Shown: in pieces, positions 149 to 51,371 of the stretch
Position numbering within the stretch: the stretch's first letter is position 1
Layout: the number at the start of each line of letters is the position of its first letter
Source of the DNA: a virus
Lineage: Duplodnaviria > Caudoviricetes
Length of the DNA stretch: 64,000 nt
Reading direction: 5' to 3' (one strand)
IMG/VR virus record: IMGVR_UViG_3300045015_000053
Notes under the pieces: generated by a model
Told to the model about the DNA's origin: nothing
The model's database searches: none
Seen by the model: only the letters and a program-made list of their open reading frames with translations
Translations under genes and position numbers: made by a program

Positions 149-1768
149 ATGGCTTCTCGATTCATGGCCGGTATGCCACTGCTGATGGGCGACAACACGG
201 TTCCAGGCGCACCGATGCCGAAGGAACTGAAGGAACTGATTCCGACCATCTTCAAGGTATGCACGGAGTTCGGCCTCGACTACTACCCGACCGTCGTCCA
301 ACTCCTCACCTACGACGAGGTGAGCGAGATCGCGGCCTACGGCGGGTTCCCCGTCCGCTACCCCCACTGGCAGTGGGGCATGGAGTACGAAGAACTCCAA
401 CGCGGCTACGAGTACGGGATGCACAAGATCTACGAGATGGTGATCAACAGCAACCCGTGCTACCTGTACTGTCTGCACAGCAACACGCTGGTGGACAACA
501 TCACGGTGATCGCGCACGCCCTCGGCCACTGCCACTTCTTCAAGAACAACGTGTTCTTCGAGCCGACGCAGAGGTTCGCGCGTGACTACAACATGATCAA
601 CGAACTCGCGAACCACGGCAACCGGGTTCGCGAGTACATGGGTCGTTGGGGCAAAGAAAAGGTCACCGAGTTCATCGACCACATCCTCCGCATCGACTCG
701 CTCATCGACCCCGCCTCGGCGTGGGACGAGAAAGAGTCGAAGGACGTGGTCGTTCGCGACACCCGCAAGTACCAGCAACCGCGTCGGCTCAAAGTCGATC
801 AGGGTCGCCGGCACATGGAAGACTGGATCAACCCGCGTGAGTGGAAGGAACGCGAGAAGAAGCGGATCACCAAGAACGAGGCGTCCGAAGACCTCGGTCT
901 GTTCGGGGGGCCGCTGAAGGACATCATGGGGTTCCTCCGGGTCAACGCCCCGCTCCGTCCGTGGCAGGCCGACATCTTCAGCATGCTCTACGAGGAAGCC
1001 CTGTACTTCTCTCCGCAGGGCAAGACGAAGATGATCAACGAGGGCTTCGCGTCGTGGGTGGACTTCAACATCATGGCGCGAATGGGGTACATCGGCCTCG
1101 GCCAGAGTCATCACTCGGCCGGCATCATCGAGTACGCCGACCACAAGATGGGCGTACTCGGCGGTCACTACTCGCTCAACCCGTACAAGCTCGGCTTCAG
1201 CATCCTGCTCGACATCGAGGAGCGGTGGGACAAGGGCCAGTTCGGGAAAGAGTGGGACGAGTGTAAAGACCTGAAGAAGAAAGAGGCGTGGGACACGAAG
1301 GCCATGCTCGGCAAGCAGAAGGTGTTCGAGGTCTGCCGCAACTACGACGACCCGACCCTGATCGCCGAGTTCTTCACCGAAGACCTCTGCCGCAAGATGG
1401 AGTTCTTCACATGGAAGCATTACCCGAACGGCGACACGAAGTACGAGAGCAACGACTACCCGGCGATCAAGGCCAAGCTGATGCGGCGGTTCATCAACCG
1501 TGGTCTGCCCGACCTGAAACTGGTCGAGCCGAACTATCGCGGACGCGGGTATCTGCTGCTCGAAGACTTCAGCGAACCGGGCCACACGCTGTACGACCCG
1601 TACCTGCGAGAAGTGCTGACTTCGATCCGCTACCTGTGGAACAACGACGTGGTCGTCGTGACTAAGAACAAGGACGGCGCGGAGATCGTCTACCACTGCC
1701 ACGGGTCCGACGCCGACAAGGGCGTGTCGGTCAAGTCGCGTGAAGCGTACCTGAAGGACGGATACTAA
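149..1768 (+). CDS. spoVR: SpoVR/YcgB family protein
   Basis: Motifs GFPVRYPHWQWG, KIYEMVIN, AHALGHCHFFKNN, TKMINEGFAS, LNPYKLG. Confidence 0.9.
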   Translation: MASRFMAGMPLLMGDNTVPGAPMPKELKELIPTIFKVCTEFGLDYYPTVVQLLTYDEVSEIAAYGGFPVRYPHWQWGMEYEELQRGYEYGMHKIYEMVINSNPCYLYCLHSNTLVDNITVIAHALGHCHFFKNNVFFEPTQRFARDYNMINELANHGNRVREYMGRWGKEKVTEFIDHILRIDSLIDPASAWDEKESKDVVVRDTRKYQQPRRLKVDQGRRHMEDWINPREWKEREKKRITKNEASEDLGLFGGPLKDIMGFLRVNAPLRPWQADIFSMLYEEALYFSPQGKTKMINEGFASWVDFNIMARMGYIGLGQSHHSAGIIEYADHKMGVLGGHYSLNPYKLGFSILLDIEERWDKGQFGKEWDECKDLKKKEAWDTKAMLGKQKVFEVCRNYDDPTLIAEFFTEDLCRKMEFFTWKHYPNGDTKYESNDYPAIKAKLMRRFINRGLPDLKLVEPNYRGRGYLLLEDFSEPGHTLYDPYLREVLTSIRYLWNNDVVVVTKNKDGAEIVYHCHGSDADKGVSVKSREAYLKDGY

Positions 1769-2043
1769 TGGGCAGGCAACTGCTTCAAGTAGAAGATATT
1801 CTGTATTACCGGGACAAGGTACTCGACAACGACCCCTATGTCGAGTACGTTGGGTGGGAGTTCCCTGACGGGAAGATCCTTCTGCTTCATCCGGTCGTTA
1901 AAATCTTCGAGTCGGTGGACCACATCCGCCGACACCCCGGATCGACACTGTGTCTGCAAACGGTTGCCAGACCAGACGGAACCAAAGACTACCTGCCACC
2001 AGAAAACATGAAAAAGAAATGGTGGCAGTTCTGGAAAAAATGA
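1768..2043 (+). CDS. hypothetical protein with C-terminal KKWWQFWKK
   Basis: ATG overlaps the spoVR stop. Confidence 0.65.
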   Translation: MGRQLLQVEDILYYRDKVLDNDPYVEYVGWEFPDGKILLLHPVVKIFESVDHIRRHPGSTLCLQTVARPDGTKDYLPPENMKKKWWQFWKK

Positions 2044-2207
2044 TGGAAGTGAACATTTTCCACAACGAAACTGCTCAGGACGTGATGGAGCAGCTTCGTT
2101 TCATCCTGATGGAGTTCGGCGTCAAACTCGAAGTCAAAGAGTCTGACAAAGAAAGTACCACTTACAAGTTCTCGCACGCATTGCCGCTCGAAAAACCCGA
2201 CGAATGA
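2040..2207 (+). CDS. small hypothetical protein (55 aa)
   Basis: ATGA overlap with the previous gene. Confidence 0.55.
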   Translation: MMEVNIFHNETAQDVMEQLRFILMEFGVKLEVKESDKESTTYKFSHALPLEKPDE

Positions 2208-2220
2208 CGTGCGGTCCAAG

Positions 2221-2226
2221 TAGATA
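2221..2226 (+). promoter_or_regulatory. putative late promoter TAGATA, 5 nt before ATG
   Basis: gTAGATAcggtcATG; recurrent motif and spacing. Confidence 0.6.
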
Positions 2227-2231
2227 CGGTC

Positions 2232-2924
2232 ATGAAAAAGAAGAAACCCGTTCTACCGCCGTCATACGACATCTTCGACGCCCTGAATCAAGTCCACCGC
2301 GACAGCATCTGTACGGAAACCAGAGAGATCTGGCTGCACAGTACGCACGCGGGCGACGACGAACCGGGCGTCGAATATCGTATGGCGACGATGTTCCTCA
2401 AGAACCTCAACCTTCTTGAGAAGGACGGGAGCCGCCGGCCCATACTCGTTCACATGCACGTTACGGGCGGCGAGTGGAACGACGGGATGGCGATCTACGA
2501 CGCCATCAAGCTCTCCCCCTGTCCGATCACCATCATCGCCTACGCTCAAGCGTCCTCGATGTCGGGAATCATCCTCCAAGCCGCCAAAACCCGGCTGATG
2601 ATGCCCAACTGCGAGTTCATGGCTCACACCGGCAGTCTCGACACCAACAACGAAACCCTTGTCGCTTTCAAGCTCGCGCAGCGGAACATGGAGTGTCACA
2701 AGCTGATGCTCTCGATCTTCGCCGAGCGGTGCATGAAGGTCGAAAAGTACAAGGGTCTGGCTCTCGAAGAGGTCATGGCGAAGATCGACTGGTGGATGAA
2801 GAACGACGGCGAGATCAACATCCTCGCGGCCGAGGCCGTCGAGAACGGGTTCGCCGACGCCGTGATCGGAAGCAAAGAATACCCCACGGTTTATGACGCC
2901 TGGGGACGAATCATGTCCGGCTGA
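2232..2924 (+). CDS. clpP: ClpP-like serine protease
   Basis: GGEWNDGMAIYDAIK, AQASSMS (catalytic Ser), RLMMPNCEFMAH (His), AAEAVENGFADAVI. Confidence 0.85.
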   Translation: MKKKKPVLPPSYDIFDALNQVHRDSICTETREIWLHSTHAGDDEPGVEYRMATMFLKNLNLLEKDGSRRPILVHMHVTGGEWNDGMAIYDAIKLSPCPITIIAYAQASSMSGIILQAAKTRLMMPNCEFMAHTGSLDTNNETLVAFKLAQRNMECHKLMLSIFAERCMKVEKYKGLALEEVMAKIDWWMKNDGEINILAAEAVENGFADAVIGSKEYPTVYDAWGRIMSG

Positions 2925-2926
2925 TC

Positions 2927-2955
2927 TTGACAGTGGCTCTCGCCTTTCTTAAAGT
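2927..2955 (+). promoter_or_regulatory. sigma70-type promoter for the dnaE N-half unit
   Basis: TTGACA-17 nt-TAAAGT. Confidence 0.7.
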
Positions 2956-2979
2956 TGCTCTACCTCAGAGGGCAGGGCC

Positions 2980-3102
2980 ATGCTTGGTTTTGAACACCTT
3001 CACAGCGGTTTCGATTTTTCGATTCTGGATCAGTTCGTCACATGGGAACCCGACCATGAACCAATGGTTGAAGGCGATTTGGATGCGGAGTGCGTTTCCT
3101 AG
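2980..3102 (+). CDS. 40-aa ORF resembling the first strand of the DnaE PHP domain
   Basis: MLGFEHLHSGFDFSILDQF vs DnaE GLEHLHLHTDFSLLDGF; purine-rich RBS upstream. Confidence 0.45.
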   Translation: MLGFEHLHSGFDFSILDQFVTWEPDHEPMVEGDLDAECVS

Positions 3103-3292
3103 CGGGACACAGGTACGCATCACCGGCAACCACACCCTGGTAAAAGGGTCTTTGGTTTTGAACTGCACTGGTCTGACTGGCATAGTTGACCGCTATTGCC
3201 ATTGGTCCGACTGTTTCGTTGTGCTTCTGGACGATCCGCCGCACCACGAACTCTGGCTCGGCGAACTGGAGATCCAAAAGGTATTACCATGA
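3056..3292 (+). CDS. hypothetical protein
   Basis: ATG 3056; ATGA overlap with the dnaE start. Confidence 0.55.
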   Translation: MNQWLKAIWMRSAFPSGTQVRITGNHTLVKGSLVLNCTGLTGIVDRYCHWSDCFVVLLDDPPHHELWLGELEIQKVLP

Positions 3293-4710
3293 GCATCCCT
3301 GTCACCGGCCTGGAACACCTTCACCTGCACACGGATTTCTCGCTTCTCGACGGGTTCGGGATGGTGGAGGAGTACACGGAGCGGTGGAAGAAGCACGGCC
3401 GCTTCCTGTGCATCAGTGACCACGGGATGATGGGAGCCGTACCGCGCCAGATCAAAGCCTGTGAAGCCGTCTGCGAAGAACTCAAAGACAAAAACGCCTT
3501 CTCGCCCATCTTCGCCTGCGAACTTTACGTCAACCGCTACCACACCGAAGCCACGCCCGACGTTGCCAGCCGCGAAAAGCTGCTCGCGGGCATGAACCCT
3601 GATGAAAAGGCCGGTTTCAAAGTCCGTGGCAGTCACCTGCTCGCCATCGCCTACAACGAAGTTGGCTACAGTAACCTCGTCAGAATGACGACGTGGGCGT
3701 ACCTGAACGGTTTCTACGGCAAGCCCCGCGTCAACTACGAACAACTTCTGAAACACAAAGAGGGTCTGATCTTCACGAGTTGCTGCTACAACTCCGAGAT
3801 CGGTCGCGCCTTCGAGTACGGCGGGACCAGTTACGAAGAGAAGCGTGACGCCGCCGCTGTCGTCATCGAGCGGTACATTCAGATGTTCGGTTCGGAATAC
3901 TTCTACCTCGAAATCATGCTCCTCGATTTCGAGAAACAAAAACCCTACGACAAGTTCATCATCTGGGCGGCAGATAAGTACAAGCTCCGTCTGATCGTCA
4001 CCAACGACTGCCACTACTGTCTGCCCGAAGACTCCGAGTACCAGCGTCTGATGTTGATGCAGCAGACCGGAAAGACAATCAAAGACATTCAAAAGGCACT
4101 CAACGAAGAGGGCATAAAAGACCTGTTCGAGCTTCAGGACCAAAACTTGTGGATGAAGACCGAAGAAGAACTGAATGACATGTGGGTGAAGAAGTACAGC
4201 GACACTATCGATCTGGACATCTTCCAGTGCGCCAAAGCGAACACCGTCAAGATCTGCGAGATGTGTAAGGGCGTGAAGCTCGACCGCCGCAACAAACTGC
4301 CCAAGCTCAAGAACGCCGAGGACGAACTCCAAACCCACATCCTGAATGGGTTCAAGGAACGCCACATCGTCGGCAAACACTACAAGGCTCGCGCGGCTCA
4401 GGAATACGAACTGATCTGTCGCAAGGGGTTCGCGTCTTACTTCCTGATTCAGAAGAAGATGGTGGACGAAGCCCGGCGGTACTACCGCGACGTGCTGAAG
4501 CTCGGAAGTGGCTACGAGGCTGTGGGTCCGGGCCGTGGGTCGGCCGTGGGCGCACTCACCTGCTATCTGTTGGGCATCACCGACGTTGACCCGGTGGAAG
4601 AAGATCTGCTGTTCGACCGCTTCTTGAGCGACAGTCGCGGCGGTCGGCAGATCAAACTGCGGTTCTCGAACATCGACCCGATCATCACCAAAAAAGAAGA
4701 AGCCGCTTGA
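3289..4710 (+). CDS. dnaE: DNA polymerase III alpha, N-terminal half (PHP domain to GPGRGS motif)
   Basis: HLHLHTDFSLLDG, ISDHG, IVTNDCHY, GPGRGSAVGALTCYLLGITDVDP...LLFDRFL; ends before the catalytic DxD. Confidence 0.92.
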   Translation: MSIPVTGLEHLHLHTDFSLLDGFGMVEEYTERWKKHGRFLCISDHGMMGAVPRQIKACEAVCEELKDKNAFSPIFACELYVNRYHTEATPDVASREKLLAGMNPDEKAGFKVRGSHLLAIAYNEVGYSNLVRMTTWAYLNGFYGKPRVNYEQLLKHKEGLIFTSCCYNSEIGRAFEYGGTSYEEKRDAAAVVIERYIQMFGSEYFYLEIMLLDFEKQKPYDKFIIWAADKYKLRLIVTNDCHYCLPEDSEYQRLMLMQQTGKTIKDIQKALNEEGIKDLFELQDQNLWMKTEEELNDMWVKKYSDTIDLDIFQCAKANTVKICEMCKGVKLDRRNKLPKLKNAEDELQTHILNGFKERHIVGKHYKARAAQEYELICRKGFASYFLIQKKMVDEARRYYRDVLKLGSGYEAVGPGRGSAVGALTCYLLGITDVDPVEEDLLFDRFLSDSRGGRQIKLRFSNIDPIITKKEEAA

Positions 4711-4722
4711 GGCGGCTTCTTC
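4696..4722. terminator. bidirectional hairpin between convergent genes
   Basis: GAAGAAGCCGC-ttgag-GCGGCTTCTTC, perfect 11-bp stem. Confidence 0.75.
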
Positions 4723-4725
4723 GGG

Positions 4726-5964
4726 TCACATGTCGTCGTCTTCTTCCCACGGCATCTTTTCATGCTCGTCGTCTTCGTCGTCCGAGTCGTCGTCGTCTTC
4801 GTCATCGAGGTCGTCATCCCCGCTTTCATTGTCGTCATCTAGACCCAGATCGTCGCTGAAGTCGAGTTTGTGGTCGTCATCCCCGCCTTCATCTCCCATC
4901 CCGCCCTTGCCCGGAGGTGGCGGCGGGCTGTCTTCGTCCCCGCCGGCCATGTCGTCCATCTCCCCGCCGAGGTCCGGCTTCTCGCCGCTGTCTCCGAGGT
5001 CGTCGCCGCCCATGTCACCCTTGCCCGGTGGCGGTGGCGGCATGTCTTCGTCACCGCCTTCGCCCGGACCACCTTCATCATCCAGATCGAGGTTGTCTCC
5101 AACATCGCCGCCGTCTTCGTCCCCTTCGCCGTCGTCGTCTAGATCGAGGTCGTCCTCTTCGTCGCTGACTTTACGTTTCTCTTCTGACGGGTCAACGTCT
5201 TCGATGTCCATGCTGTCGTCGTGGGCCGGCTCGTCAACTTCTTCGCGGATCGCATGTTCGAGACGCCGCTGGAACGCTTCGCCCTTTTTGCTTTCGATGA
5301 TCTTGGCGAGAGCTTTGAAAGCCTCTGGGATCGTCAGCAAGTCGTTCACGAGAGCTTGAACCCCTCCGCTCCGGTTGATTTCGCGGACGAGGGCGTTACG
5401 CAAGTTGGCGTTCTCGTTGGCGAGGTACGCGACGTACCGAATCGCCTGAACCGGGTCCGGGTAGAACGCGCCGGCCGAGTGCGCAACGACGTGCGGTGCC
5501 TTTTTGCTCTTAACGTTCTCGGTCAGCCCCTTCTTGACGTGCTTGGCGAATTCGGCCGTCGTCATGCCTTTGGTGGCTTTGAGGAACGATTCGGTGGTCG
5601 TGGGACCGCCCTTCGGCCAACTTGCCACGGACTTTCCGCCGGACACGCCCTGTGTGGACTTGCTCACTCCGTTTTTGCCACCGTACCAGCCGTCACCCGG
5701 CTCGTACACGAGTCCTTTGTCGCCCATGTGTGCGAAGCCGCCCTTTTCAGCCTTCTTGGGGGCTTTGTCGGTGCCGCTCTTGTACGGCGCGGGCGTACCT
5801 TTGCTGCCGACGTTGGGGACTTCCCAATTCTTGCCTTTGGTCGAGCCTTTCTTGGGGCTTTTCTCTTTTGGGCCTTTGTAGTCTGGGGTCGCTTCGACTG
5901 GCGGTGCGGTGACGACTTTCCCTTTAGAGGAAAGGTACTCTTTGAATGTCTTGAACGATTTCAT
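4726..5964 (-). CDS. putative head-internal/prohead-core protein with long acidic D/E/G/P tail
   Basis: GGAGG RBS; starts MKSFKTFKEYL; TAAATA 57 nt upstream; two PPPPPGKG repeats. Confidence 0.65.
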   Translation of the reverse strand: MKSFKTFKEYLSSKGKVVTAPPVEATPDYKGPKEKSPKKGSTKGKNWEVPNVGSKGTPAPYKSGTDKAPKKAEKGGFAHMGDKGLVYEPGDGWYGGKNGVSKSTQGVSGGKSVASWPKGGPTTTESFLKATKGMTTAEFAKHVKKGLTENVKSKKAPHVVAHSAGAFYPDPVQAIRYVAYLANENANLRNALVREINRSGGVQALVNDLLTIPEAFKALAKIIESKKGEAFQRRLEHAIREEVDEPAHDDSMDIEDVDPSEEKRKVSDEEDDLDLDDDGEGDEDGGDVGDNLDLDDEGGPGEGGDEDMPPPPPGKGDMGGDDLGDSGEKPDLGGEMDDMAGGDEDSPPPPPGKGGMGDEGGDDDHKLDFSDDLGLDDDNESGDDDLDDEDDDDSDDEDDEHEKMPWEEDDDM

Positions 5965-5974
5965 GTTCCTCCGG

Positions 5975-6412
5975 TTATTGCAATGGCCGTGCGGCAGGAC
6001 CACTGCTCTGGCCGATGAGTGTATTTAGGAAGACTTCGACCAACTCGTCCAAAGTTGTTTGATTGGTCTTCAACTCGCTCAGTCTCTTCGCGATGTATGT
6101 GACGATGCTGATGTTGGCCGGCTGAACCGCCGCTTGGAAAATGGCGACCGCGATCTTCGGAACCAGATTCCGTTCTCGCGCGGCTTCGTAAATGGCTTCA
6201 TAGGCGGCGTCAAGGCGGTTCTTGTCCTTCGGCACCTTACTCAGTCTCTTGACGAGTTCTTGTGCCGCCCCCATCGCTTTGCTGCTGGCCGAGGGTGGGG
6301 AATACGGTTTTTCGCCCGTGCCGGACGCAACACGGTCCAGTCTGCGTTCACCGCGACTCGGCACCAGACCGGCGAGGGCTTCGGCCACCCATTCGGTGAA
6401 CTTCGTTTCCAT
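5975..6412 (-). CDS. hypothetical protein with CTS-like N-terminus
   Basis: METKFTEWVAEA; GGAG RBS. Confidence 0.65.
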   Translation of the reverse strand: METKFTEWVAEALAGLVPSRGERRLDRVASGTGEKPYSPPSASSKAMGAAQELVKRLSKVPKDKNRLDAAYEAIYEAARERNLVPKIAVAIFQAAVQPANISIVTYIAKRLSELKTNQTTLDELVEVFLNTLIGQSSGPAARPLQ

Positions 6413-6458
6413 GCTTCTCCGGTAGAAATCTTTGTCTCGAAGGTATATACTTGCAACT

Positions 6459-6695
6459 ATGATTTCTTTCCGCGAGTATCTGGAACGCGACCGGCTCAAG
6501 AAGCACGTTCGCCACCACAACACGACAAAAGCGTTGGAAGACGCTTTTCCGGGTGAAGAACTGGACAAAGCCAAAAACGCGGTCTATACTAACTGGCGTG
6601 GAAGGAATAAGAGAGCCGCGATGAGGAAATTCATCGCGGACAAGGATACGAAGTGGGCGAATCTTTGGGGTAAGATCCGAAACGACGCTGACTGA
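6459..6695 (+). CDS. small basic protein with CTS-like N-terminus
   Basis: MISFREYLER; TATATA 6444-6449 upstream. Confidence 0.65.
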   Translation: MISFREYLERDRLKKHVRHHNTTKALEDAFPGEELDKAKNAVYTNWRGRNKRAAMRKFIADKDTKWANLWGKIRNDAD

Positions 6696-6701
6696 GTAAA
6701 T

Positions 6702-7079
6702 GGGGATGAAAAGGTTTCGATACGGTACGGAGGTTGTGAGTTGCACGCCGTGGTTGAGCGAAGGGCCACGTTAAAAATCGTTCAAACTCCATCTGGCAAA
6801 ACCAGTGGTCTGCGTCTGGTGGGCGACCGCCCGGCGCTCCGTCTCGCGGCTTGACCGCGACGGGTCCGCGAGGGACTTCAGATAACTCGCGGGTCCGCAA
6901 CACATCTGGATCGGTCATCAGGGTTGCTCCCTGACTGATGGCCGGAACTACCAGGGAAGCTTGCTCGTGACCTTGATGTCGGTAAGAGGTTACGGGGACT
7001 CCAGGCCCGACTAAGCGTGTGAACGAAATTTACAGTTGAAGTAGCGTACACGCGGGTTCGACTCCCGCCATCTCCACTA
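6702..7079 (+). ncRNA. ssrA: tmRNA, tag (A)GKTSGLRLVGDRPALRLAA
   Basis: 5' GGGGATGAAAAGGTTTCGA; 3' T-arm GCGGGTTCGACTCCCGC and CATCTCC-A with G3:U wobble; tag frame 6795-6854 ends LAA-TGA. Confidence 0.93.
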
Positions 7080-7115
7080 GAATACCCCGCGATTGCTCGC
7101 GGGGTATTCTTGTTT
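7080..7115 (+). terminator. intrinsic terminator after tmRNA
   Basis: GAATACCCCGCGA-ttgc-TCGCGGGGTATTC then TTGTTT. Confidence 0.85.
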
Positions 7116-7128
7116 CCAGAGGCAGATC

Positions 7129-7659
7129 ATGTTCGCAATCTTCTCCGGTCAGCACGACGATCATCAACTCGACGGCATATTTTCGACGCAAGAGAAAGCC
7201 GATGCCGCTCTTGTCGAAGTCTCGAAGATCCGCGACCATGCTGTCATTTCTCAAATCGTTGTTGACGAGTTGTGCGGGCGAAAAGCGATCCCTCATTGGC
7301 GTGCAACAGTAAACGTGGCTACTGGTGAGCTTTTGTTCGACAAAGAAGACGGATCGTATCGATTCTACGAGGGTGTGAGTTACAACTGGGAAGATGCTCC
7401 CTACCCCGAACTCGACACTTATGTCAATGTGATTCAGATAATCCCTTACCGTCACAACGGCTACATCCCGAAAAACTTCTCAGTCTTCTCGGCCAAAAGT
7501 CAGGAAGCCGCAAGAGAGTTGGCGCTTGCGGCGTGGGCGGAACTGAATCGGAGGCTCGATTTAAGCAAGATCTACCACGCGACCGGCTCGATCTGGTATC
7601 CGAAGGAATTGACCGAAAAACTGTACGAAGACGGGGTTTGCAAATTCCCTTCGGCTTGA
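7129..7659 (+). CDS. hypothetical protein
   Basis: ORF with GAGG RBS. Confidence 0.65.
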   Translation: MFAIFSGQHDDHQLDGIFSTQEKADAALVEVSKIRDHAVISQIVVDELCGRKAIPHWRATVNVATGELLFDKEDGSYRFYEGVSYNWEDAPYPELDTYVNVIQIIPYRHNGYIPKNFSVFSAKSQEAARELALAAWAELNRRLDLSKIYHATGSIWYPKELTEKLYEDGVCKFPSA

Positions 7660-7751
7660 TCGGTCTATATTGTCGTCGTGGTGACTGCTGGCTTGTTCGT
7701 GACCTCCCTTTCTGATAGACTTTCAAAGTCACTCAGTTACGGAGTTTAGCG

Positions 7752-8009
7752 ATGTTTTCCAAAGCCGGTCACTGGATTTCTTACAAGTGGTTCTCGTTCA
7801 TCCTCTGGGCCTTTCCCAGTCGCGCCGAACGGTTCCACGAACGTAAAGGTATGAGAAGGGCAATCGGCGGGCGGTGGGGTCTGTGGGAAGTTGACATGGG
7901 CGGCTGGATGGGGAAGTTTCACATCTGGTTGCGATCCCAATGCGAACACTACCCTTCCCCGCCGTTCGCCACCTCAACTGAACCTCTGGAAACGGAAGAG
8001 TACAAATGA
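7752..8009 (+). CDS. Trp-rich hypothetical protein
   Basis: ORF with ATGA overlap to the next gene. Confidence 0.55.
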   Translation: MFSKAGHWISYKWFSFILWAFPSRAERFHERKGMRRAIGGRWGLWEVDMGGWMGKFHIWLRSQCEHYPSPPFATSTEPLETEEYK

Positions 8010-8401
8010 AGCGTCTCATCTTGGCCGTCGCCCTGTTCGCTCTCGTCGGCTGCGGCCCGACTCTGTACGAACTGAAACAACGTACCACCTCGGATTTGAA
8101 CGTCATCGCTCAAGAGTGGGACGGGAAGGCGAATCCCCCCGATCTGAAGGGCCGGCTCGATCCGTGGGGCAACCAGTACCAAGCCGCCGTGACAAAGGAA
8201 AAGCTCAACTACAAGTTGAGCGTCCGGTCGCCCGGACCAGATCGTCTGCCGTACAATTCTGATGATCTTGTCGTCACGCGACAAGCCGCTCACGGCGAAA
8301 CCACACAGAATCTCGAAAACGAGGGATTCTTTTACTCCATCTCGAAGGGCATCTTTGGCGGCGCACGCGACGGCGTCACCGGCAAAGAGTCCAAAAAGTG
8401 A
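8006..8401 (+). CDS. lipoprotein with GspG/T2SSG-like C-terminal motif
   Basis: Lipobox ALVG-C; DPWGNQY ... SVRSPGPDRLPYNSDDL. Confidence 0.65.
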   Translation: MKRLILAVALFALVGCGPTLYELKQRTTSDLNVIAQEWDGKANPPDLKGRLDPWGNQYQAAVTKEKLNYKLSVRSPGPDRLPYNSDDLVVTRQAAHGETTQNLENEGFFYSISKGIFGGARDGVTGKESKK

Positions 8402-8436
8402 TCAGCCCGAACCTCTAACGACCGGATGAGGACAAT

Positions 8437-8919
8437 ATGTCACTCGTACTTTCCAGCAGCAACCCTCGCGTCCGCGTGAAGACCTACGGCTTCGCCGAGG
8501 AAGTGGTCACGATTACATGTGAGGATCAGTGGAAGCCGCCGTTCCGACAAGTGGACGTGCCGATCAAGAAGTTCCTACAAATGGCGACAAGCTTCTTCCA
8601 GAGCTACGTCAGCGGCCAAGAAGCGCCGGCGTCAATTCGGATGTGTGGGGACCGGGTGCTGATGAATCTGGCCGAAGGGTGTCTGTTCGACGTGGCGGCG
8701 TGTGATTTGTTTCACATGATTCGCTACGTCATGACCAACACCGACGTGCGGCCTAACGACCCAAGACACCAGTTCTTCGAGTCGTGCAAGAGTCTGCCGA
8801 GGCCGAAATCGGAGGCGAACGGCACCGTGGACGTGATGATTCGATTCTTACAGGACGCCAAGATCGTGCCGGGCTTCAATACCCACCTCGGCAATAATTC
8901 AACTCGATACCAAGTCTAG
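8437..8919 (+). CDS. hypothetical protein
   Basis: ORF with GAGG RBS. Confidence 0.65.
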   Translation: MSLVLSSSNPRVRVKTYGFAEEVVTITCEDQWKPPFRQVDVPIKKFLQMATSFFQSYVSGQEAPASIRMCGDRVLMNLAEGCLFDVAACDLFHMIRYVMTNTDVRPNDPRHQFFESCKSLPRPKSEANGTVDVMIRFLQDAKIVPGFNTHLGNNSTRYQV

Positions 8920-8920
8920 G

Positions 8921-8972
8921 TTGGATTCTTTGTTTATGGTCTGTTATACTTCCTGAGTCACCACTCAGGAGG
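8921..8972 (+). promoter_or_regulatory. extended -10 promoter plus RBS-sequestering hairpin
   Basis: TTGGAT-18-TATACT with TG at -15/-14; TCCTGAGT-cacc-ACTCAGGA covers AGGAGG. Confidence 0.5.
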
Positions 8973-8978
8973 TATGAC

Positions 8979-10028
8979 ATGAGCGACGACAAAGAACTCA
9001 ACGATATACTCGACGCTTCGCCCTCTCGCCGTCGTCGGCGGGACAGGGCCGACCACGACGAATCTCCCGCCGTCTGCGAAAAAGGGGTCGATCCCGACGC
9101 ATGGTCGCGGAGCAACGTTCAATGGACGAGCGGCGACGACCTCCGCTTCATCCCCGCCGCAAAGACGTGCCGTAAGCTTCCGCCCGGCGCATACGAAATC
9201 AAGTCCAATCCGAACGTCGGCACTTACTTCGAGAAGATCCCCGTCAGCATCGACGGGCTGGTGCGGTTTCCCCAAGCCAACACCGACAAGGTGCTTCTGG
9301 AGATCCAGAAGTTCTGGGAACGCGAAGCACTGTTCCGCGAGTACCGTCAGACCTACAAACGCGGCATCCTGATGTGGGGACCGCCCGGCGGCGGTAAGTC
9401 ATGCTGCATCAAGTTCGTGATGAAGGACGTGATCGAGGAACGCAAGGGCATCGTGATCAAGTTCACGAACCCGCACATGTTCGTTGAGGGCATGCGGATT
9501 CTGCGTGAGATCGAGCCGAACACGCCGGTCGTGGTGCTGCTCGAAGACATCGACTCGACCATCGAGCGGTGGAGCGAGACGGAAGTTCTCAACATCCTCG
9601 ACGGCGTGGACAAGATCGACCGCGTGGTCTTCCTCGCGACCACCAACTACCCCGAACTCCTCGGCGCGAGAATCATCAACCGGCCGAGCCGCTTCGACAA
9701 GCGGTTCAAGATCGACAAGCCGAACCCGGAATCGCGGATGATCTTCCTCAAGCACATCCTGTGCGACGAGGCGCGGGCGGCGAAAGAGAAACTGACCCCC
9801 GAAAAGCGGGAGCAGTTTATCAAGAAGCGTGCCGCCGAACTGGGCATCAATCTCGACAAGTGGGTGCGGGACTCGGACGGCTTCAGCATCTCGCACCTGA
9901 AGGAACTGTTCATCGCCGTCATCATCCTCGGCGACGAGTACGCCGACGCCATCAAGACCCTGAAGTCGATGAAGGATCAGATCAGGCACGGCGACGACGA
10001 CGGCACCACGAAGATGGGCTTCATTTGA
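8979..10028 (+). CDS. AAA+ ATPase (classic AAA clade)
   Basis: Walker A GPPGGGKS, Walker B LLEDID, SRH ATTNYPE...NRPSRFD. Confidence 0.88.
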   Translation: MSDDKELNDILDASPSRRRRRDRADHDESPAVCEKGVDPDAWSRSNVQWTSGDDLRFIPAAKTCRKLPPGAYEIKSNPNVGTYFEKIPVSIDGLVRFPQANTDKVLLEIQKFWEREALFREYRQTYKRGILMWGPPGGGKSCCIKFVMKDVIEERKGIVIKFTNPHMFVEGMRILREIEPNTPVVVLLEDIDSTIERWSETEVLNILDGVDKIDRVVFLATTNYPELLGARIINRPSRFDKRFKIDKPNPESRMIFLKHILCDEARAAKEKLTPEKREQFIKKRAAELGINLDKWVRDSDGFSISHLKELFIAVIILGDEYADAIKTLKSMKDQIRHGDDDGTTKMGFI

Positions 10029-10037
10029 AGCGGCGGT

Positions 10038-10080
10038 CAATGCAAGAACCCGGCCGCAGAATGGCCGGGTTCTTGCATTG
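10038..10080. terminator. 18-bp perfect hairpin
   Basis: CAATGCAAGAACCCGGCC-7 nt-GGCCGGGTTCTTGCATTG. Confidence 0.75.
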
Positions 10081-10106
10081 ACAACACAAAGAAACCCATC
10101 GATAAT
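10078..10106 (+). promoter_or_regulatory. sigma70-type promoter for the dnaE C-half
   Basis: TTGACA-17 nt-GATAAT. Confidence 0.75.
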
Positions 10107-10135
10107 TTGCTGTCCACCAGCCAGCGAGATCAATC

Positions 10136-12991
10136 ATGAAGAACGAGGAAGTTGACACACTTCGCATGATGTGCAAGGACGCCCTCGCCGCACGCAACCT
10201 TCAAAACTGCCCGATTCACACCAAGCGACTGAAGTGGGAGATCGCCGAGATCAAGGCCCAAGACGAGGCCGCGTACTTCATCGACCTTCACGCCCGTGGC
10301 GTGAAGTACCCCAAGAACGAAAACAACCTTCTCGTCGCGTGGCTGCTCGGCATCTGCGACGACTATGAGATCGAGAAAGACCCTGAGTGCAACTACGGGG
10401 AGTTCCCCGACATTGACGTGGACTACCTCAAGGTGGTCCGCGACTACCTGAAGAACGAGTGGGCGTTGAAGGAGTTCGACGGCCAGGGCTTCCATACTTG
10501 CAGCATCGGCAACTACAACACCTTCGGGATCAAGCAGGGCTTCATCGAGTGCGCGGTCACCTACGGGGAAGACCGCCACGAGATCAACGCCATCACCAAG
10601 CAACTCAAACTCAAGGACGACGAGGGCAAGGGGCTGACGTTCGACAAGGCTCTCGAACTGTATCCCGAACTCAAGGCGTATTCCGAGAAGTACCCGCACA
10701 TCGCGCGGGCGGTGAAGAAGATGCTTCACCGAAACAAGAACATGGGGAAGCACGCGGGCGGTCTGATCATCGCCGACAGCCCCATCGACAACCTCGTGCC
10801 GCTCGTCAAGAACGCGAAGGACGGGAGCATCAGTTCGGCGTGGGTGGAGGGTCTGCACGGTCAGGACTTGGGGCCGGTAGGTCTGATCAAGTTCGACATG
10901 CTCGTCATCGCGGACCTTGAACGGATCGCGATGATCAACCGGATCATCAAGAAGCGGCACGGGCTTCAGGGCGTGTGCGCCAAGCCGGAAACGCCGGACT
11001 GGGACTGGAGCGACGGCAGCTACCGCCACGACCCGAAGACCCTCGAACTGGCGAACAAGGCCGACCTTCTGGGCATCTTCCAGTTCGACTCGGACGGGAT
11101 TCGGAAGTTGGTCCGCGAGGGCGGGGTGACCAACTTCCGCGACATCGTCGCGTACAGTGCGATCTACCGGCCCGGCCCGCTCAACATGAAGATGGACAAG
11201 GCGTACACCGAGCGGAAGCACGGCCGGGAGGAGTACACCGTACACCAACTGCTCGAAAAGTACCTCGGCTACACCTACGGTGTCATGTGCTTCCAAGAGC
11301 AGGTAATGCAGATGCTCCACTTCGCGGGCAACATCCCGCTGAAGGATACCTACGCCGTCGTCAAAGCCATCGCCAAGAAGAAGGTCAAGGGTTTCGCCAA
11401 GTACAAAGAAAAGTTCATGAAGAACGCGGCGGTCAATCTCGGCCTGACCGAAGAACAGGTTGTCCACCTGTGGGGTCAGATCGAGAGCTTCGCCGAGTAC
11501 GGTTTCAACCGCTCGCACAGTTGTGCGTACAGCTACATATCGGCGCGTCTGCTGTATCAGAAGGCCAACTACCCGTTGGAGTTCTGGGCCGGCACGCTCG
11601 CGTGCGAAGAAGACACTGACACGCTGAACCTGTACCGCCGTCAGGCTCAACGGGCCGGGGTGTCGCCGAACTACATCGACCTGAACAAGAGCCACCACAC
11701 TTTCAGCATCTGCGACGAAGACAATCAGATCTACATGGGCTTCGGAAACATCAAGGGCGTGGGCGAAGCCGCCGCCCGGAAGATCGTGGAGGTGCGAGAG
11801 GCGGGCGGGCCGTTCAAGGGCATCGAAGATTTCATGCTGCGGTACGGAACCGACGCGAAAGTTCTCCGCGCCCTCATCGGGTTGAGACTGTTCAAGGAAA
11901 GCGACCCAGTGACGCTCGCGAAGTTCGTGGAGAACTACAAGGAGTACATCACCAAGCAGCGGCAGCGGCACCAGCGGTACAAGGACAGCATGGAACGCTA
12001 CGACGCCAAGATCAAAGAACTGGTTCCGACCAATCTCCACCCTTTCATTTACCGGGACGGTTTCCTAGACAGCGTTCAGAAGAAGCTCGACAAGGACTTG
12101 GAGAAGGAAGTCGAGATCGAGGAAGAGTACGAAACTGGCGAGACGCAAGAGATCGAAAAGGTCGTTCGCGTTCCGAAGAATGACAACAGCGAGGCTTACG
12201 AGGCCGGCGAAGACATTCTTGTTTACGAGGCCGGCGAGGGCGATCAGGACTACGAGGACGTTGAAGCGTACACCGAGGTTGTCGAGAAGGTGACCGTTCC
12301 GGTGATGGCCACTCGGATCATCAAGAAGCTGAAGAAGTACAACCCGTATAAGCAATTGAAGAAGGAGTTTCAGTTGCGGGCGCGGACCATGAGCCAGTAC
12401 GTCGAGCGGAACGAAGAAGAGGCGAAGAACACGCCGAGTCTGGCGACGTTCAATTCGTCGTCCGTCACCATCGACCCGAAATACGTCGCCCTGCTCCGCT
12501 CGCGGTTGCAGTCCGAGGTGACGTATCTGGGGTTCGAGTGGCAGACGGAGATGGAACGCAGCCCGGATTTCAACCCAGACACGCCGCACACTTACGACGA
12601 CGCGGAGATTCTGGCTTCGCAGGGGAAGAGTACCGTGATGCTGGACGGCCAGATCATGGAAGTGCAAAGTAAATTGGCGAAGAACAAGCGGACGAAGTAC
12701 CACTCTCTTGTATTGATAGACGCACTCGGTCGGCGCGGGTACATCAACGTATGGTCGGACGACTGGGAGCGGTGCAAGGACATTCTCAAGAAGGGGAACT
12801 TGGTCCGCTTGGTGGTCCGACAGCCCACCAAAGGATTCAGCAGCTACTCGCTGTGGTCCCCTCGCGACCGTCGCAGCGGTCTGGGCGGTGTCGTCCAAGC
12901 CGTCCGTCTGATGAAGGCGGAAGAAGAAACGCTGTCGGAAGACGACTTCGAGAAGAAGATGACCGAATTAACCGGGGAGACAGATGAGTGA
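10136..12991 (+). CDS. dnaE: DNA polymerase III alpha, C-terminal half (catalytic palm, fingers, HhH, OB)
   Basis: FPDIDVDY, GKHAGGLII, IKFDML, GIFQFDS, AIYRPGP, YGVMCFQEQVM, YGFNRSHS, GFGNIKGVG. Confidence 0.93.
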   Translation: MKNEEVDTLRMMCKDALAARNLQNCPIHTKRLKWEIAEIKAQDEAAYFIDLHARGVKYPKNENNLLVAWLLGICDDYEIEKDPECNYGEFPDIDVDYLKVVRDYLKNEWALKEFDGQGFHTCSIGNYNTFGIKQGFIECAVTYGEDRHEINAITKQLKLKDDEGKGLTFDKALELYPELKAYSEKYPHIARAVKKMLHRNKNMGKHAGGLIIADSPIDNLVPLVKNAKDGSISSAWVEGLHGQDLGPVGLIKFDMLVIADLERIAMINRIIKKRHGLQGVCAKPETPDWDWSDGSYRHDPKTLELANKADLLGIFQFDSDGIRKLVREGGVTNFRDIVAYSAIYRPGPLNMKMDKAYTERKHGREEYTVHQLLEKYLGYTYGVMCFQEQVMQMLHFAGNIPLKDTYAVVKAIAKKKVKGFAKYKEKFMKNAAVNLGLTEEQVVHLWGQIESFAEYGFNRSHSCAYSYISARLLYQKANYPLEFWAGTLACEEDTDTLNLYRRQAQRAGVSPNYIDLNKSHHTFSICDEDNQIYMGFGNIKGVGEAAARKIVEVREAGGPFKGIEDFMLRYGTDAKVLRALIGLRLFKESDPVTLAKFVENYKEYITKQRQRHQRYKDSMERYDAKIKELVPTNLHPFIYRDGFLDSVQKKLDKDLEKEVEIEEEYETGETQEIEKVVRVPKNDNSEAYEAGEDILVYEAGEGDQDYEDVEAYTEVVEKVTVPVMATRIIKKLKKYNPYKQLKKEFQLRARTMSQYVERNEEEAKNTPSLATFNSSSVTIDPKYVALLRSRLQSEVTYLGFEWQTEMERSPDFNPDTPHTYDDAEILASQGKSTVMLDGQIMEVQSKLAKNKRTKYHSLVLIDALGRRGYINVWSDDWERCKDILKKGNLVRLVVRQPTKGFSSYSLWSPRDRRSGLGGVVQAVRLMKAEEETLSEDDFEKKMTELTGETDE

Positions 12992-47135: not shown

Positions 47136-47230
47136 GGGGGAGTAGCTCAGAGGCCAGAGCGCAATCTAGGGAGCCGATTAAAAACCGGCAAACGTGATTG
47201 AGGTCGTTGGTTCGACTCCAACCTCCCCCA
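47136..47230 (+). ncRNA. tRNA-like RNA with 29-nt insert in place of the anticodon loop
   Basis: GGGGGAG/CTCCCCC-A acceptor, GCTC/GAGC D stem, CAATC/GATTG stem, GTTGG-TTCGACT-CCAAC T arm. Confidence 0.75.
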
Positions 47231-47635
47231 CTCGGCAGGATGTTAGTAGCGGACTACATTACACCAACACCAATGTGTCTCTACGATTTTTTGCCTGCCA
47301 CAACATGCCCCTGGTGGGGCGATCTGCCGGAATGGGCGACGGCAGACGTAACGCCAGGGGCTTCTTAAATCCAGAACGGGTCAGCGAAAAAGCACCAACG
47401 GCATGTAAGAGTGCCTACCCGTTCTGGACTCGTCTTCCGCCTTATCAGCGGAAGTGGTGGAGGCGACGGTGTCACCAACATCGCTGCCCTTCGGAGAGTA
47501 AACTCCGAGCGACTCCGGTCGCGAAACAAATCTGGTGGATCGCTGGCTACTGCCGGCCCCCGGAGTACAGTCTTCGGACGGGCTTGACCCGGAAACAAAA
47601 CTGATGTGGAGTTCCTGTAAAAAGGGGCTTCATAT

Positions 47636-47707
47636 GGGGAGCAGGTGTCAAGGGACACGTCCTGGCTAATCACCGGGAAGAGTGGGGTTCGATTCCCCGG
47701 CTCCCCT
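47636..47707 (+). tRNA. atypical tRNA, anticodon AAT (Ile-like) with C37 and 4-nt D loop
   Basis: GGGGAGC/GCTCCCC; GTGTC-AAGG-GACAC; CCTGG-CTAATCA-CCGGG; TTCGATT T loop. Confidence 0.55.
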
Positions 47708-47921
47708 CTGGCGATGGGGATATACCCCTCGCCTCTCACTCGCAACATTTTTGACCCGGTCGGGGTGCGATCCCCGTGGGTATGCAGTAGCGGGTGTACA
47801 TTCATGAAAAGCGGAGGGACGTAATGTCCGAACACTACCAGAGGGGACCGCCCCTGAGAATGTACTACCCCTATATGGCACCCATGTCCGCATACCGCAT
47901 CTGATCGCGCGGGCCGGGTGA

Positions 47922-47959
47922 CAAAAACCCCAGTGAAACCCACTGGGGTTTTTGTTTTT
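47922..47959 (+). terminator. intrinsic terminator
   Basis: CAAAAACCCCAGTG-aaacc-CACTGGGGTTTTTG then TTTTT. Confidence 0.88.
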
Positions 47960-47974
47960 CAAGATAGATACAGC

Positions 47975-48769
47975 ATGCACACCGTCTTCGCCGAGTGGCT
48001 GTTCGAGCGGACCACCGATCCCGAACGCCGCGCCAGAATCGACAAGGCTTTCAACACCCTGAAGGCGTTCATGGAAAAGGTCGTCAAAGAAGACACCTTC
48101 TCCGACTACTTCCAGACGGACGGCGACTTCTACTACTTCTTTCCCTGCGTCAAGCACCTGCCCGAAGTCTTCAAAGGGAACATGGAGTTCATCGCTCAGA
48201 AGTTCGACAAGGAAGCTCAACAAGACACGAACCCTCTGATGGGCCAGCAGATCGACTACAGCGGCGGGTTCAACTTCCTCGACCACGATCCGCCGCTGTT
48301 CACCTTCGTCTTCCAGACCGACCGCAAGACGTTCATCCAGAACTTTCCGAAGTATTGTGCCAACTGGTTGTCACAGGTTCGGCAGACCTTCAATCACGAG
48401 TACAACCACTACCTCGACTGGCTCGACTCGGACGGGAAGGCGATCCCCGCCAAGAACATCTGGAACGCCGGCGCGGGCGAGGCCCAACGGAAGAAATACT
48501 TCAACTCGACGCACGAGGTCAACTCGTTCTTCACCGACATGGTGATGGACGACTTCGAGTTCGTGCGGGGCGGGATGTTCTCGAAGATGCCGCCGGCCAA
48601 GAAACTCGCGGTGTTCGAGAAGATGTACGGCCGGGACGCTCGCGAGTACGTCGCCAAGTTCTGGACCCGCAAACAGGGCTTCTCCGAGTTCTCCACGGAA
48701 ACCCGCAAGCGGCTGTCGAAACGACTGTACGCCGCCTACCAGCAACTGAAGGCCGAAATCTCGGCTTGA
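47975..48769 (+). CDS. zincin-like HExxH protein with CTS-like N-terminus
   Basis: TAGATA 47965-47970 plus 4 nt; MHTVFAEWLFER; FNHEYNH...YFNSTHEVNSF. Confidence 0.7.
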   Translation: MHTVFAEWLFERTTDPERRARIDKAFNTLKAFMEKVVKEDTFSDYFQTDGDFYYFFPCVKHLPEVFKGNMEFIAQKFDKEAQQDTNPLMGQQIDYSGGFNFLDHDPPLFTFVFQTDRKTFIQNFPKYCANWLSQVRQTFNHEYNHYLDWLDSDGKAIPAKNIWNAGAGEAQRKKYFNSTHEVNSFFTDMVMDDFEFVRGGMFSKMPPAKKLAVFEKMYGRDAREYVAKFWTRKQGFSEFSTETRKRLSKRLYAAYQQLKAEISA

Positions 48770-48775
48770 AATGTC

Positions 48776-48792
48776 GCGCAATTTCGGAGACT
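48776..48792 (+). repeat. 17-bp intergenic direct repeat, copy 1
   Basis: GCGCAATTTCGGAGACT, identical at 50749-50765. Confidence 0.8.
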
Positions 48793-48842
48793 GTTTTCCC
48801 CGTGCTTGTTGGTAGTGTTCACACTCTACCAATGAGGGAAAC

Positions 48843-49151
48843 ATGCTGCACTACGTCACGCCGGAAATGGGCGACAAGGCTCCCGAAAGCGCCAAGACGT
48901 TCGCCAAACTCGCCCACTACGGCCGGCACTATTTCCTCGATTCCACCCTCGGCCCGGACGTGATCAAGGGCATGGGAGTCGTCTACCGTGGGCAGTACAA
49001 GGAAGACGCCAGCGACGACCCCCTCAAGATGGAACTGCGTTGCGAGAAGGGTTCCAAACTCGCGAACCACTACAGCTACAAGGTGACCATCCGGGCGTTC
49101 GAGAAACTTGGTAAAACCATCGACATCGCAGTGGACTGCCCACTGGATTAA
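48843..49151 (+). CDS. hypothetical protein
   Basis: GAGGG RBS. Confidence 0.6.
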   Translation: MLHYVTPEMGDKAPESAKTFAKLAHYGRHYFLDSTLGPDVIKGMGVVYRGQYKEDASDDPLKMELRCEKGSKLANHYSYKVTIRAFEKLGKTIDIAVDCPLD

Positions 49152-49159
49152 GGAGCAAC

Positions 49160-49573
49160 TTGTCAGAGATCGCTGTAGTTTGTACGCACTGTCAGAATCC
49201 GATGAACGTCCCGAAAACGTTCACCGGCCGGTTCGCCGAGTTCCATTGCAAGAACTGCGGCCGGTCCTTCGGTGTGACCCCGACCGACTCTCAGGTCCGC
49301 ACTCTCAGTCGCGGCGCGGAGTCGATGAGGGGGAAGGTCGCCGAGCAGATGGCTAAGGCCGGGCAAGAGATCCTCGGCCTGCCCGTTCAACTGACCCAGA
49401 TGAAAGAGGTCAAGTGGGCGGTCCAGTGCCGAGTCGAAGCTGTCACCCCCACAGGGGTCGCCATTCCGCTCGGAATTGTTCGATTTTCTGATGCGGGCAA
49501 GGTGTATTCCGAGCAATCCGGGTCTACACTGTCCGAGATCATGGACCGCGTAGACCCCAAATCCCGATGCTAA
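49160..49573 (+). CDS. zinc-ribbon hypothetical protein
   Basis: CTHC...CKNCG; AGGAG RBS with TTG start. Confidence 0.6.
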   Translation: MSEIAVVCTHCQNPMNVPKTFTGRFAEFHCKNCGRSFGVTPTDSQVRTLSRGAESMRGKVAEQMAKAGQEILGLPVQLTQMKEVKWAVQCRVEAVTPTGVAIPLGIVRFSDAGKVYSEQSGSTLSEIMDRVDPKSRC

Positions 49574-49582
49574 GGTGCTTCA

Positions 49583-50452: not shown

Positions 50453-50742
50453 AAATCTCCGTCACGCAGGCCGACATCGATCAGGCCGCGAATTGGCAAG
50501 AAGACTTGCAACGAAACCCGGTCGCGTGGGCGATTCGCCGGACGACCGGCATTCCAACCTCGGCCGGGCCGGGCGCGGCGGTGATCGACTACTGCACGCC
50601 GTGGCAGTCCGAGTGCTGGTTGCCGGACGAGATCATCGACTGGCTCGAAAACTTCAACAACGGCGAGGAGGTCGAGCCGATTGAGTTCGAGATCGATTTC
50701 GATCTGGAGGCTCACGAGACGCGGCGGGCCGGTCGGCGATAA
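50449..50742 (+). CDS. hypothetical protein
   Basis: GTGA overlap; MKISVTQADID. Confidence 0.6.
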   Translation: MKISVTQADIDQAANWQEDLQRNPVAWAIRRTTGIPTSAGPGAAVIDYCTPWQSECWLPDEIIDWLENFNNGEEVEPIEFEIDFDLEAHETRRAGRR

Positions 50743-50748
50743 ACTTCG

Positions 50749-50765
50749 GCGCAATTTCGGAGACT
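50749..50765 (+). repeat. 17-bp intergenic direct repeat, copy 2
   Basis: GCGCAATTTCGGAGACT. Confidence 0.8.
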
Positions 50766-50819
50766 CGGTCTGGGCGGTTTCTAAGTGGTGGAGACGGTTT
50801 CGCGAACGGGAGACGGGCC

Positions 50820-51131: not shown

Positions 51132-51132
51132 C

Positions 51133-51363
51133 ATGAAGATCTTCTCACGCATCACCGTTTACCAGATGCTCGACGGGATGGAGAAGCGGGGTGACATCAA
51201 CGGTCGCCCCTACAACTTCTCGCTGACCGTGACCTTCTACAAGCTGAAGGCCGGGTTCAAGTGGACCCTTGATAGCGGGAACCGGGTACGAAACCTTCGC
51301 GGGCCGTTCGCGACCATCGAAGAGGCTGAAGCTGCGGCGAAAACCCAACTCGAAGCTTTCTGA
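51133..51363 (+). CDS. small hypothetical protein
   Basis: Coupled ORF. Confidence 0.55.
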   Translation: MKIFSRITVYQMLDGMEKRGDINGRPYNFSLTVTFYKLKAGFKWTLDSGNRVRNLRGPFATIEEAEAAAKTQLEAF

Positions 51364-51371
51364 GGTGTCCA

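Follow-up and report, generated by a model that had tools for sequence, protein, structure and literature searches.

Can a replicative DNA polymerase of the C family work when its active site is divided between two separately encoded proteins? This question was raised by a locus in the IMG/VR viral record IMGVR_UViG_3300045015_000053, in which DnaE, the alpha subunit of DNA polymerase III (Pol III), was encoded by two genes. The DNA that we analysed, called the window below, was a stretch of 64,000 nucleotides (nt) and part of this 188-kb record, the completeness of which was 37% according to CheckV. A completeness of 37% at 188 kb implied that the source was a huge phage. The DNA of the window was present in several lake-water metagenomes. 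The N-terminal half of the polymerase (N-half, 473 amino acids (aa)) was encoded at 3289-4710 and the C-terminal half (C-half, 951 aa) at 10136-12991; these and all further coordinates are on the plus strand unless stated otherwise. An earlier note on this DNA had placed the two reading frames and their motifs, with the halves 5.4 kb apart, and had proposed a two-subunit DnaE with a duplicated junction. The open reading frame (ORF) and Pfam data agreed with this placement. We consider it probable that the two products associate non-covalently into one replicase, in which the active site is composite and the N-chain bears a PHP proofreader, because the halves carried complementary invariant motifs, occurred together at six loci, showed purifying selection on their overlap and gave a model of a complex.

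The N-half consisted of a PHP domain and the first part of a Pol-beta-like palm. Pfam matched PHP (PF02811) at 3e-31 and positions 3-98 of PF07733 at 2e-22, and the product was identical to the database cluster P0004. The PHP domain (residues 10-210 by the Pfam envelope; 3316-3918) belonged to a protein in which all nine metal ligands were present: H12, H14, D21, H45, E78, H116, C165/C166, D240 and H242. The ligand positions were invariant or nearly so across 70 N-halves. Since all nine were conserved, the sequence suggested that the N-half can double as a proofreader. The palm segment (residues 347-450; 4327-4638), delimited by Pfam and by conservation, was the copy that retained the GS loop, which binds deoxynucleoside triphosphate (dNTP). 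Its GPGRGS motif (residues 413-418) lay at 4525-4542, and G413, R416, G417 and S418 were invariant in 70 N-halves. The protein ended in a tail conserved across the clade (4636-4707), in which RGG was followed by a short amphipathic strand (RGGRQIKLRFSNIDP...AA). All N-halves ended alike: RF[LM]S..RGG led into a short amphipathic strand, after which came a short tail. This tail may be a remnant of the catalytic strand that has lost its aspartates.

In the C-half, a palm head without the GS loop was followed by the catalytic strand, the thumb, the remaining palm, the fingers, the helix-hairpin-helix (HhH) and the C-terminal region. Pfam matched positions 100-259 of PF07733, the finger domain PF17657 at 3e-38 and HHH_6 (PF14579) at 1e-16; the finger domain (residues 289-432) and the HhH (residues 514-583) together spanned 11000-11884. 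Profile alignment delimited the head (residues 1-88; 10136-10399) as a helical copy of the palm segment in which the GPGRGS loop was deleted and N-x-NNLL stood instead. Every C-half opened with such a head of about 88 aa, in which KRLKWE..EI, YFLDL, N-x-NNLL and LLGI preceded PDIDVD. The residues R31, E35, Y47, N61, N64 and L65 of the head were invariant. The PDIDVD catalytic strand (residues 91-96) was located at 10406-10423, and its D92 and D94 corresponded to D401 and D403 of E. coli. D254, in a KFD motif (10895-10897), is probably the third catalytic carboxylate, equivalent to E. coli D555 as judged from the motif. D92, D94, D96 and D254 were invariant in 70 C-halves.

The gap between the halves was 5425 nt. 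The Pfam model PF07733 was cut between its positions 98 (N-half) and 100 (C-half), and the break fell in a loop, with the GS loop and the RFL helix on its N-terminal side and the DxD catalytic strand on the other. The catalytic core was not on one polypeptide: it was distributed over two ORFs, each with its own start and stop, and genes on the opposite strand lay between them. The pair had the features of a C-family DnaE, namely the PHP domain, the GS loop and three carboxylates (on two chains), the finger and HhH domains and the Pol III fold.

The junction around this break was present twice. In a direct BLASTP comparison of the N-half with the C-half, the match was marginal (E 0.02). The overlap copies compared profile against profile gave 86.8% over 37 columns. 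The profile of the C-half head against PDB sequences gave weak matches (E 2.2), the sole ones being residues 312-344 and 398-412 of E. coli Pol III alpha. The nearest deposited relative was LR756511.1, a 595-kb uncultured phage with a single DnaE of 1179 aa (P0003; locus L003, 10978-14517), and it was the only match when the C-half head was searched against deposited phages with tblastn. The tblastn matches of both halves on this unsplit gene overlapped by about 276 nt. In a three-way alignment, the last 100 or so residues of the N-half and the first 100 or so of the C-half fell on one stretch of P0003. A profile of 45 C-half heads was colinear with residues 335-449 of P0003 (hhalign; Prob 98.1%, E 1.2e-13, 91 columns), with a gap of 15 residues exactly at the GPGRGS loop. 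This profile alignment and the overlapping matches on the unsplit relative showed that the head is truly homologous to the palm segment at the end of the N-half.

The earlier note had called the head a degenerate copy without GPGRGS. The copy and the loss of the loop were borne out by the alignment, and the word degenerate was not, because the head was conserved over 190 clusters and had a ratio of nonsynonymous to synonymous substitution rates (dN/dS) of about 0.04. The reference was L012, the closest relative of the C-half with DNA available. Against it, dN/dS was 0.037 in the head, 0.037 in the palm and thumb and 0.083 overall, and it spanned 0.04-0.15 along the C-half. A pseudogene-like dN/dS, which the earlier note had named as evidence against its proposal, was not observed for the C-half. 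The N-half comparison was limited to dN because its closest nucleotide relative, L004, was saturated at synonymous sites. These sequence data indicated that the head is under strong purifying selection and is not a degenerate relic. A possible origin by duplication and reciprocal loss, as proposed earlier, fits the anatomy.

Relatives were gathered by protein searches and then by collecting the contigs that encoded the matches. The N-halves fell into more than 120 clusters (445-490 aa, 55-83% identical), which came from huge-phage contigs of up to 669 kb. The C-halves formed 190 clusters of about 830-950 aa in the same contig range, and none of them had a PHP domain. Megablast of the polymerase region against deposited phages gave no match, and the search for related loci, made with the C-half protein alone, returned none from IMG/VR. 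The halves were found together at six loci (the window, L004, L006, L007, L008 and L009), with spacers of 1-6 kb. Synteny had been named earlier as a check, and the split layout was kept at all five related loci; in L004, L006, L007 and L008 the N-half lay 1.5-6 kb upstream of the C-half. L009 represented a much more distant split lineage, with an N-half 33% identical. Its halves were separated by about 1 kb with two plus-strand ORFs, and its C-half had the same head without the GS loop. Judged from these sequences, the split is ancient and has been conserved within a large clade of phages; it is not a peculiarity of one genome.

The spacers also had genes in common. A homologue of an acidic minus-strand protein was encoded in all spacers compared (window, L004, L006, L007 and L008), and L003 had one as well, upstream of its fused gene. 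A transfer-messenger RNA (tmRNA) gene was found in the spacers of the window, L004 (6664-7046), L006 (6779-7132) and L007 (6149-6502), and at 8723-9077 in L003, upstream of the fused gene; the Rfam scores of these five were 97-122 bits. In the window, L004, L006, L007 and L012, the C-half was immediately preceded by a gene for an AAA+ ATPase, as was the fused gene in L003.

Structure prediction was performed for each half and for the pair. With AlphaFold2 (AF2), the N-half gave a predicted local distance difference test (pLDDT) score of 85.6, with tail residues 450-473 below 50. Residues 1-520 of the C-half gave 85.8, with residues 87-95, most of the PDIDVD strand, below 50. In this model of the C-half alone, the head was helical with pLDDT 85-96. 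Residues 40-520 matched chain residues 334-820 of E. coli Pol III alpha (2hnh) by VIA-align, with Z 20.9 and a root-mean-square deviation of 4.1 A over 411 residues. Multimer prediction, which the earlier note had put forward as a check, was run with the N-half and residues 1-520 of the C-half. The interaction prediction score from aligned errors (ipSAE) was 0.84 (runs 0.85, 0.84 and 0.82), compared with 0.00 for the best of three controls. The prediction used its own alignments, and the mark of the tool was reached by 58 of 80 solved complexes and by 2 of 110 mismatched pairs. Contacts agreed between runs by at least 93%, and the pLDDT of the partner was at least 84. The predicted interface included N-half residues 409-421 with the GS loop and all residues of the tail from 443 to 467, and on the C-half the head (34-65) and the strand (83-98). 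The contacts of lowest error joined N-half 391-398 to C-half 97-105 and N-half 411-413 to C-half 96-98.

From these observations we infer physical association of the chains, a composite active site and a role for the overlap. In the proposed mechanism, a C-family replicative polymerase (DnaE or Pol III alpha) would be made as two polypeptides that associate non-covalently. The N-subunit would give the PHP domain, which is likely to proofread as a 3'-5' nuclease, together with that half of the Pol-beta-like palm in which GPGRGS binds dNTP. Its partner, the C-subunit, would give the three catalytic aspartates, the thumb, the fingers, the HhH and the C-terminal domains. The polymerase active site would be formed only at the subunit interface, because the GS loop and the aspartates sit on different subunits. 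Each subunit would keep a reciprocally reduced junction, the tail being a strand without aspartates and the head being palm helices without the GS loop, and these copies may now serve as docking elements. The earlier note had offered either an active site built from both chains or a PHP half acting as proofreader. Both were compatible with the results, in which the model placed the GS loop by the catalytic strand and the nine PHP ligands were conserved.

Several points weigh against a two-chain replicase. The support so far comes from sequence and predicted structure. The score of the complex may echo the memory that the model has of solved single-chain DnaE, and would then reflect likeness and not binding. 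When the C-half was modelled by itself with AF2, its head superposed from about residue 40 on the canonical palm helices of E. coli DnaE. By this model, the C-half could alone fold a palm that looks complete, and the place of the head in a heterodimer would then be ambiguous. In addition, the record is a fragment, and a second replicative polymerase may be encoded elsewhere in the genome. In favour of the two-chain enzyme, searches of the 188-kb record, at 37% completeness, found no PolA or PolB gene (including PF00136). DnaN and DnaB were not found there either.

A more specific arrangement of the heterodimer is a reciprocally swapped palm, which we put forward only tentatively. The helices and GS loop of the N-half would join the catalytic strand of the C-half in an obligate heterodimer to form the live site. 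The GS-less helices of the C-half and the aspartate-less strand of the N-half would form a dead pseudo-palm that acts as a clasp. Fission by partial duplication would thereby have made its own dimerisation interface. Such a state would be reversible, because in one sub-lineage the genes appear to have been fused again, with loss of both remnants.

The two genes might instead be independent, although we judge this improbable. The C-half would then be a self-sufficient polymerase whose palm is completed by the head with N-x-NNLL, and the N-half would be a stand-alone PHP nuclease or pyrophosphatase with a vestigial palm. In favour of this, the head was well folded and conserved, and with the C-half modelled by itself it overlaid the canonical palm helices; stand-alone PHP proteins are also known among bacteria. 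However, the invariant GPGRGS and its flanking helices in the N-half are hard to explain as a vestige, and the C-half had no GS loop. In nucleotidyltransferases of the Pol-beta type, the triphosphate is held via the GS loop. PDIDVD was unplaced in the fold of the C-half alone, whereas the confident model of the complex set the GS loop at the catalytic strand. The halves were also syntenic wherever they occurred together among the loci examined.

It is very unlikely that the halves are joined after transcription or translation into one canonical chain, by a split intein, RNA trans-splicing or ribosomal bypass. Cyanobacterial dnaE and 'fractured' dnaE in metagenomes are joined by split inteins (PMC2677866), and the relatives studied here carried inteins elsewhere in both halves. 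In the N-halves P0091 and P0108, a mini-intein was located exactly at GPGRG^S. Such a site is typical of essential conserved motifs, and this favours the two-chain reading. The N-half P0010 had a LAGLIDADG intein within the PHP domain, and many C-halves had inteins (PF14890). Inteins were thus common in this polymerase family, but none was at the split point. As the earlier note had stated, no intein was recognised there: neither half had a HINT or intein match in Pfam, the tail had no fixed first Cys or Ser, and at the end of the head there was no HN with a Cys, Ser or Thr after it. The head was predicted as all-helical at high confidence, in contrast to the beta-rich intein fold. Rfam detected introns neither in the region nor in six related loci, minus-strand genes lay between the halves, and no joined DNA form was found in four lake metagenome runs. 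A joined product would also hold the junction twice.

A broken or misassembled gene, that is, a DnaE interrupted by inserted DNA and decaying, would be in keeping with the intact gene of LR756511.1, but we give it almost no credence, given that hundreds of contigs, assembled independently, had this split with their frames intact, and given the low dN/dS of the C-half, and contigs from other lake-water runs that spanned the N-half stop without difference.

How the split is related to unsplit DnaE was then considered with trees. The closest unsplit proteins (P0003, P0249, P0253, P0256 and P0259) were 50-55% identical to the N-half at 50% clustering, and they had neither the tail nor the head. 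In a tree of the N-part (IQ-TREE, LG+C20 PMSF; tail columns excluded), these five formed one clade (support 100/99) inside split clades of 12 rows (99/99), 31 rows (100/100) and 35 rows (99/98). None of 200 bootstrap trees was explained by a single state change. Constraining the split rows to one clade was 66.6 log-likelihood units worse, with p = 0.023 in the approximately unbiased test (p-AU), for a group that was named only after the tree was seen. In the tree of the C-part (head columns excluded), the five unsplit proteins were also inside a split clade, with nesting that had no starred support. The fused gene of L003 occupied the position of the C-half, and the genes for the acidic protein, the tmRNA and the AAA+ ATPase lay upstream of it. 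These sequence-based results make it likely that the five unsplit relatives are the product of a secondary re-fusion with rearrangement; multiple parallel fissions are the alternative. Other short forms that ended just past the RFL helix were scattered among unsplit DnaEs, and the loop after this helix may be a recurrent break point. In the case of P0306, the one scattered short form examined, no second half was found on its short contig (L011).

The DNA between the halves contained seven plausible ORFs and a tmRNA gene: two ORFs on the minus strand, four small ones on the plus strand and one for an AAA+ ATPase. The earlier note had counted eight genes and a tmRNA; the tmRNA was correct and the number of genes was one too high. 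The first ORF (4726-6003, minus strand) encoded the acidic protein of 425 aa mentioned above, recognised by its homologues. Its N-terminal part was rich in Lys, its centre held a conserved block (APH...PDPVQA...LR.ALV.E..RSG), and it ended in a very acidic tail of about 170 residues rich in Asp and Glu. No Pfam or PHROG match was found for it; a role as DNA mimic or replisome partner is possible. The second minus-strand ORF (5975-6574) had a homologue of 145 aa in L004. The tmRNA gene (6702-7079) was full-length by Rfam (RF00023, 113 bits) and was missed by ARAGORN. The four small ORFs lay at 7093-7659, 7752-8009, 8006-8401 and 8437-8919, and two of them had homologues in L004. The AAA+ ATPase gene (8979-10028; PF00004, 2.5e-11) was directly upstream of the C-half. 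It had a weak DnaC-like PHROG match, and its product could be a clamp or helicase loader. Pfam and PHROGs gave no HNH, GIY-YIG, LAGLIDADG or Vsr match in the spacer ORFs, most of which were without any annotation.

Each half had been assigned its own TTGACA-17 promoter in the earlier note. A site was present before the C-half, where a 14-bp hairpin (10042-10076) was followed by the promoter-like TTGACA-17-GATAAT (10078-10106), a consensus match only. For the N-half the assignment needs correction, as its nearest TTGACA-17 site was 334 nt upstream. The number of promoter-like sites in the region was not above chance (5, compared with 3.1 ± 1.4 in shuffles). The ATG of the N-half overlapped the stop codon of an ORF at 2927-3292. 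An 11-bp GC-rich hairpin (4696-4722) lay between the N-half stop and the end of the convergent minus-strand gene, and it was terminator-like on the minus strand.

The C-terminus of the N-half (4702-4707) was -AA, an ending shared by 32 of 119 N-halves (P0004-P0123), and 41 of the 119 ended in A. A ClpP-like gene was located at 2232-2924. The -AA end resembles an ssrA-like ClpXP degron, and the ClpP-like gene and the tmRNA gene adjoin the N-half; from the sequence this may be meaningful, or it may be coincidence. A SpoVR-like gene (149-1768) was upstream of the polymerase genes. In L008, a complete PrkA-DUF444-SpoVR trio was encoded at 735-7073, with an intein in SpoVR. Genes for ribosomal protein S21, peptide deformylase and IF3 were found downstream of the C-half in relatives. 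The window also had arrays with 20 tRNA genes (47136-63386), including several pairs with identical or synonymous anticodons (Gln, Glu, Pro, Met and Gly).

The system was compared with known divided polymerases. Group 2.2 jumbo phages have an intein-free split of a minimal Pol III alpha, which was predicted to reconstitute one enzyme (Iyer et al. 2021, Viruses 13:63, PMC7824862). Both systems consist of two distantly encoded proteins without inteins, and the break is near the same boundary between the NTP-binding and the Mg2+/template-binding parts. However, the minimal enzyme is described in that paper as lacking PHP and other Pol III alpha domains, and it occurs beside a family B polymerase. 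Here a full-length DnaE was split, with PHP, finger and HhH present and no PolB found in the 188-kb record (37% complete), and both halves kept a conserved overlapping junction. This comparison was made from the published description.

The split-intein dnaE of cyanobacteria was reportedly described by Wu et al. in 1998. Split-intein dnaE is known from cyanobacteria and from 'fractured' loci in marine metagenomes (Dassa et al. 2009, PMC2677866). There, too, DnaE is encoded by two genes whose products act together. In contrast to the present system, those halves are rejoined covalently, the insertion points are other ones and a free-standing homing endonuclease gene often lies between them. No intein parts and no recognisable endonuclease were found here. 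Split genes are also said to occur in T4-like phages, where Aeh1 NrdA is reportedly split by mobE (Friedrich et al., 2007) and the gp43 DNA polymerase is reported as split (Petrov et al., 2006). They are alike in that a phage enzyme which is essential comes in two polypeptides, and these reassemble through non-covalent contacts with no splicing. However, those splits are recent, tied to insertion of a mobile endonuclease and without a conserved duplicated junction, whereas the split described here is ancient, its spacer varies and consists of ordinary genes, and the cut passes through the nucleotidyltransferase core itself.

Single-chain DnaE1 with an active PHP proofreader, as in M. tuberculosis and T. 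aquaticus (PDB 5lew and 2hpi), had the same domains and fold (Z 19-22), the full set of PHP ligands and the GS and Asp motifs. It differs in being a single polypeptide in which the junction occurs once. Literature searches found no description of a DnaE that is full-length, bears PHP and is split without an intein and with an overlapping junction; the nearest report was that of Iyer et al. 2021.

The two-chain replicase, if correct, would place the dNTP-binding loop and the catalytic aspartates on different polypeptides, naturally and widely. C-family polymerases replicate all bacterial chromosomes and are drug targets. In all studied examples known to us, the active site is on one chain, either directly or after intein splicing. 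The phage enzyme would offer a ready system in which nucleotide binding, catalysis and PHP proofreading can be separated. It bears on the annotation of huge phages, in which each half is now named either as a 'Pol III alpha' fragment of its own or as a hypothetical protein. Should the trees be correct, this lineage would be a rare documented case of fission followed by re-fusion. The locus would also make it possible to study how fission of an essential enzyme is survived when duplicated segments that overlap are retained as an interface.

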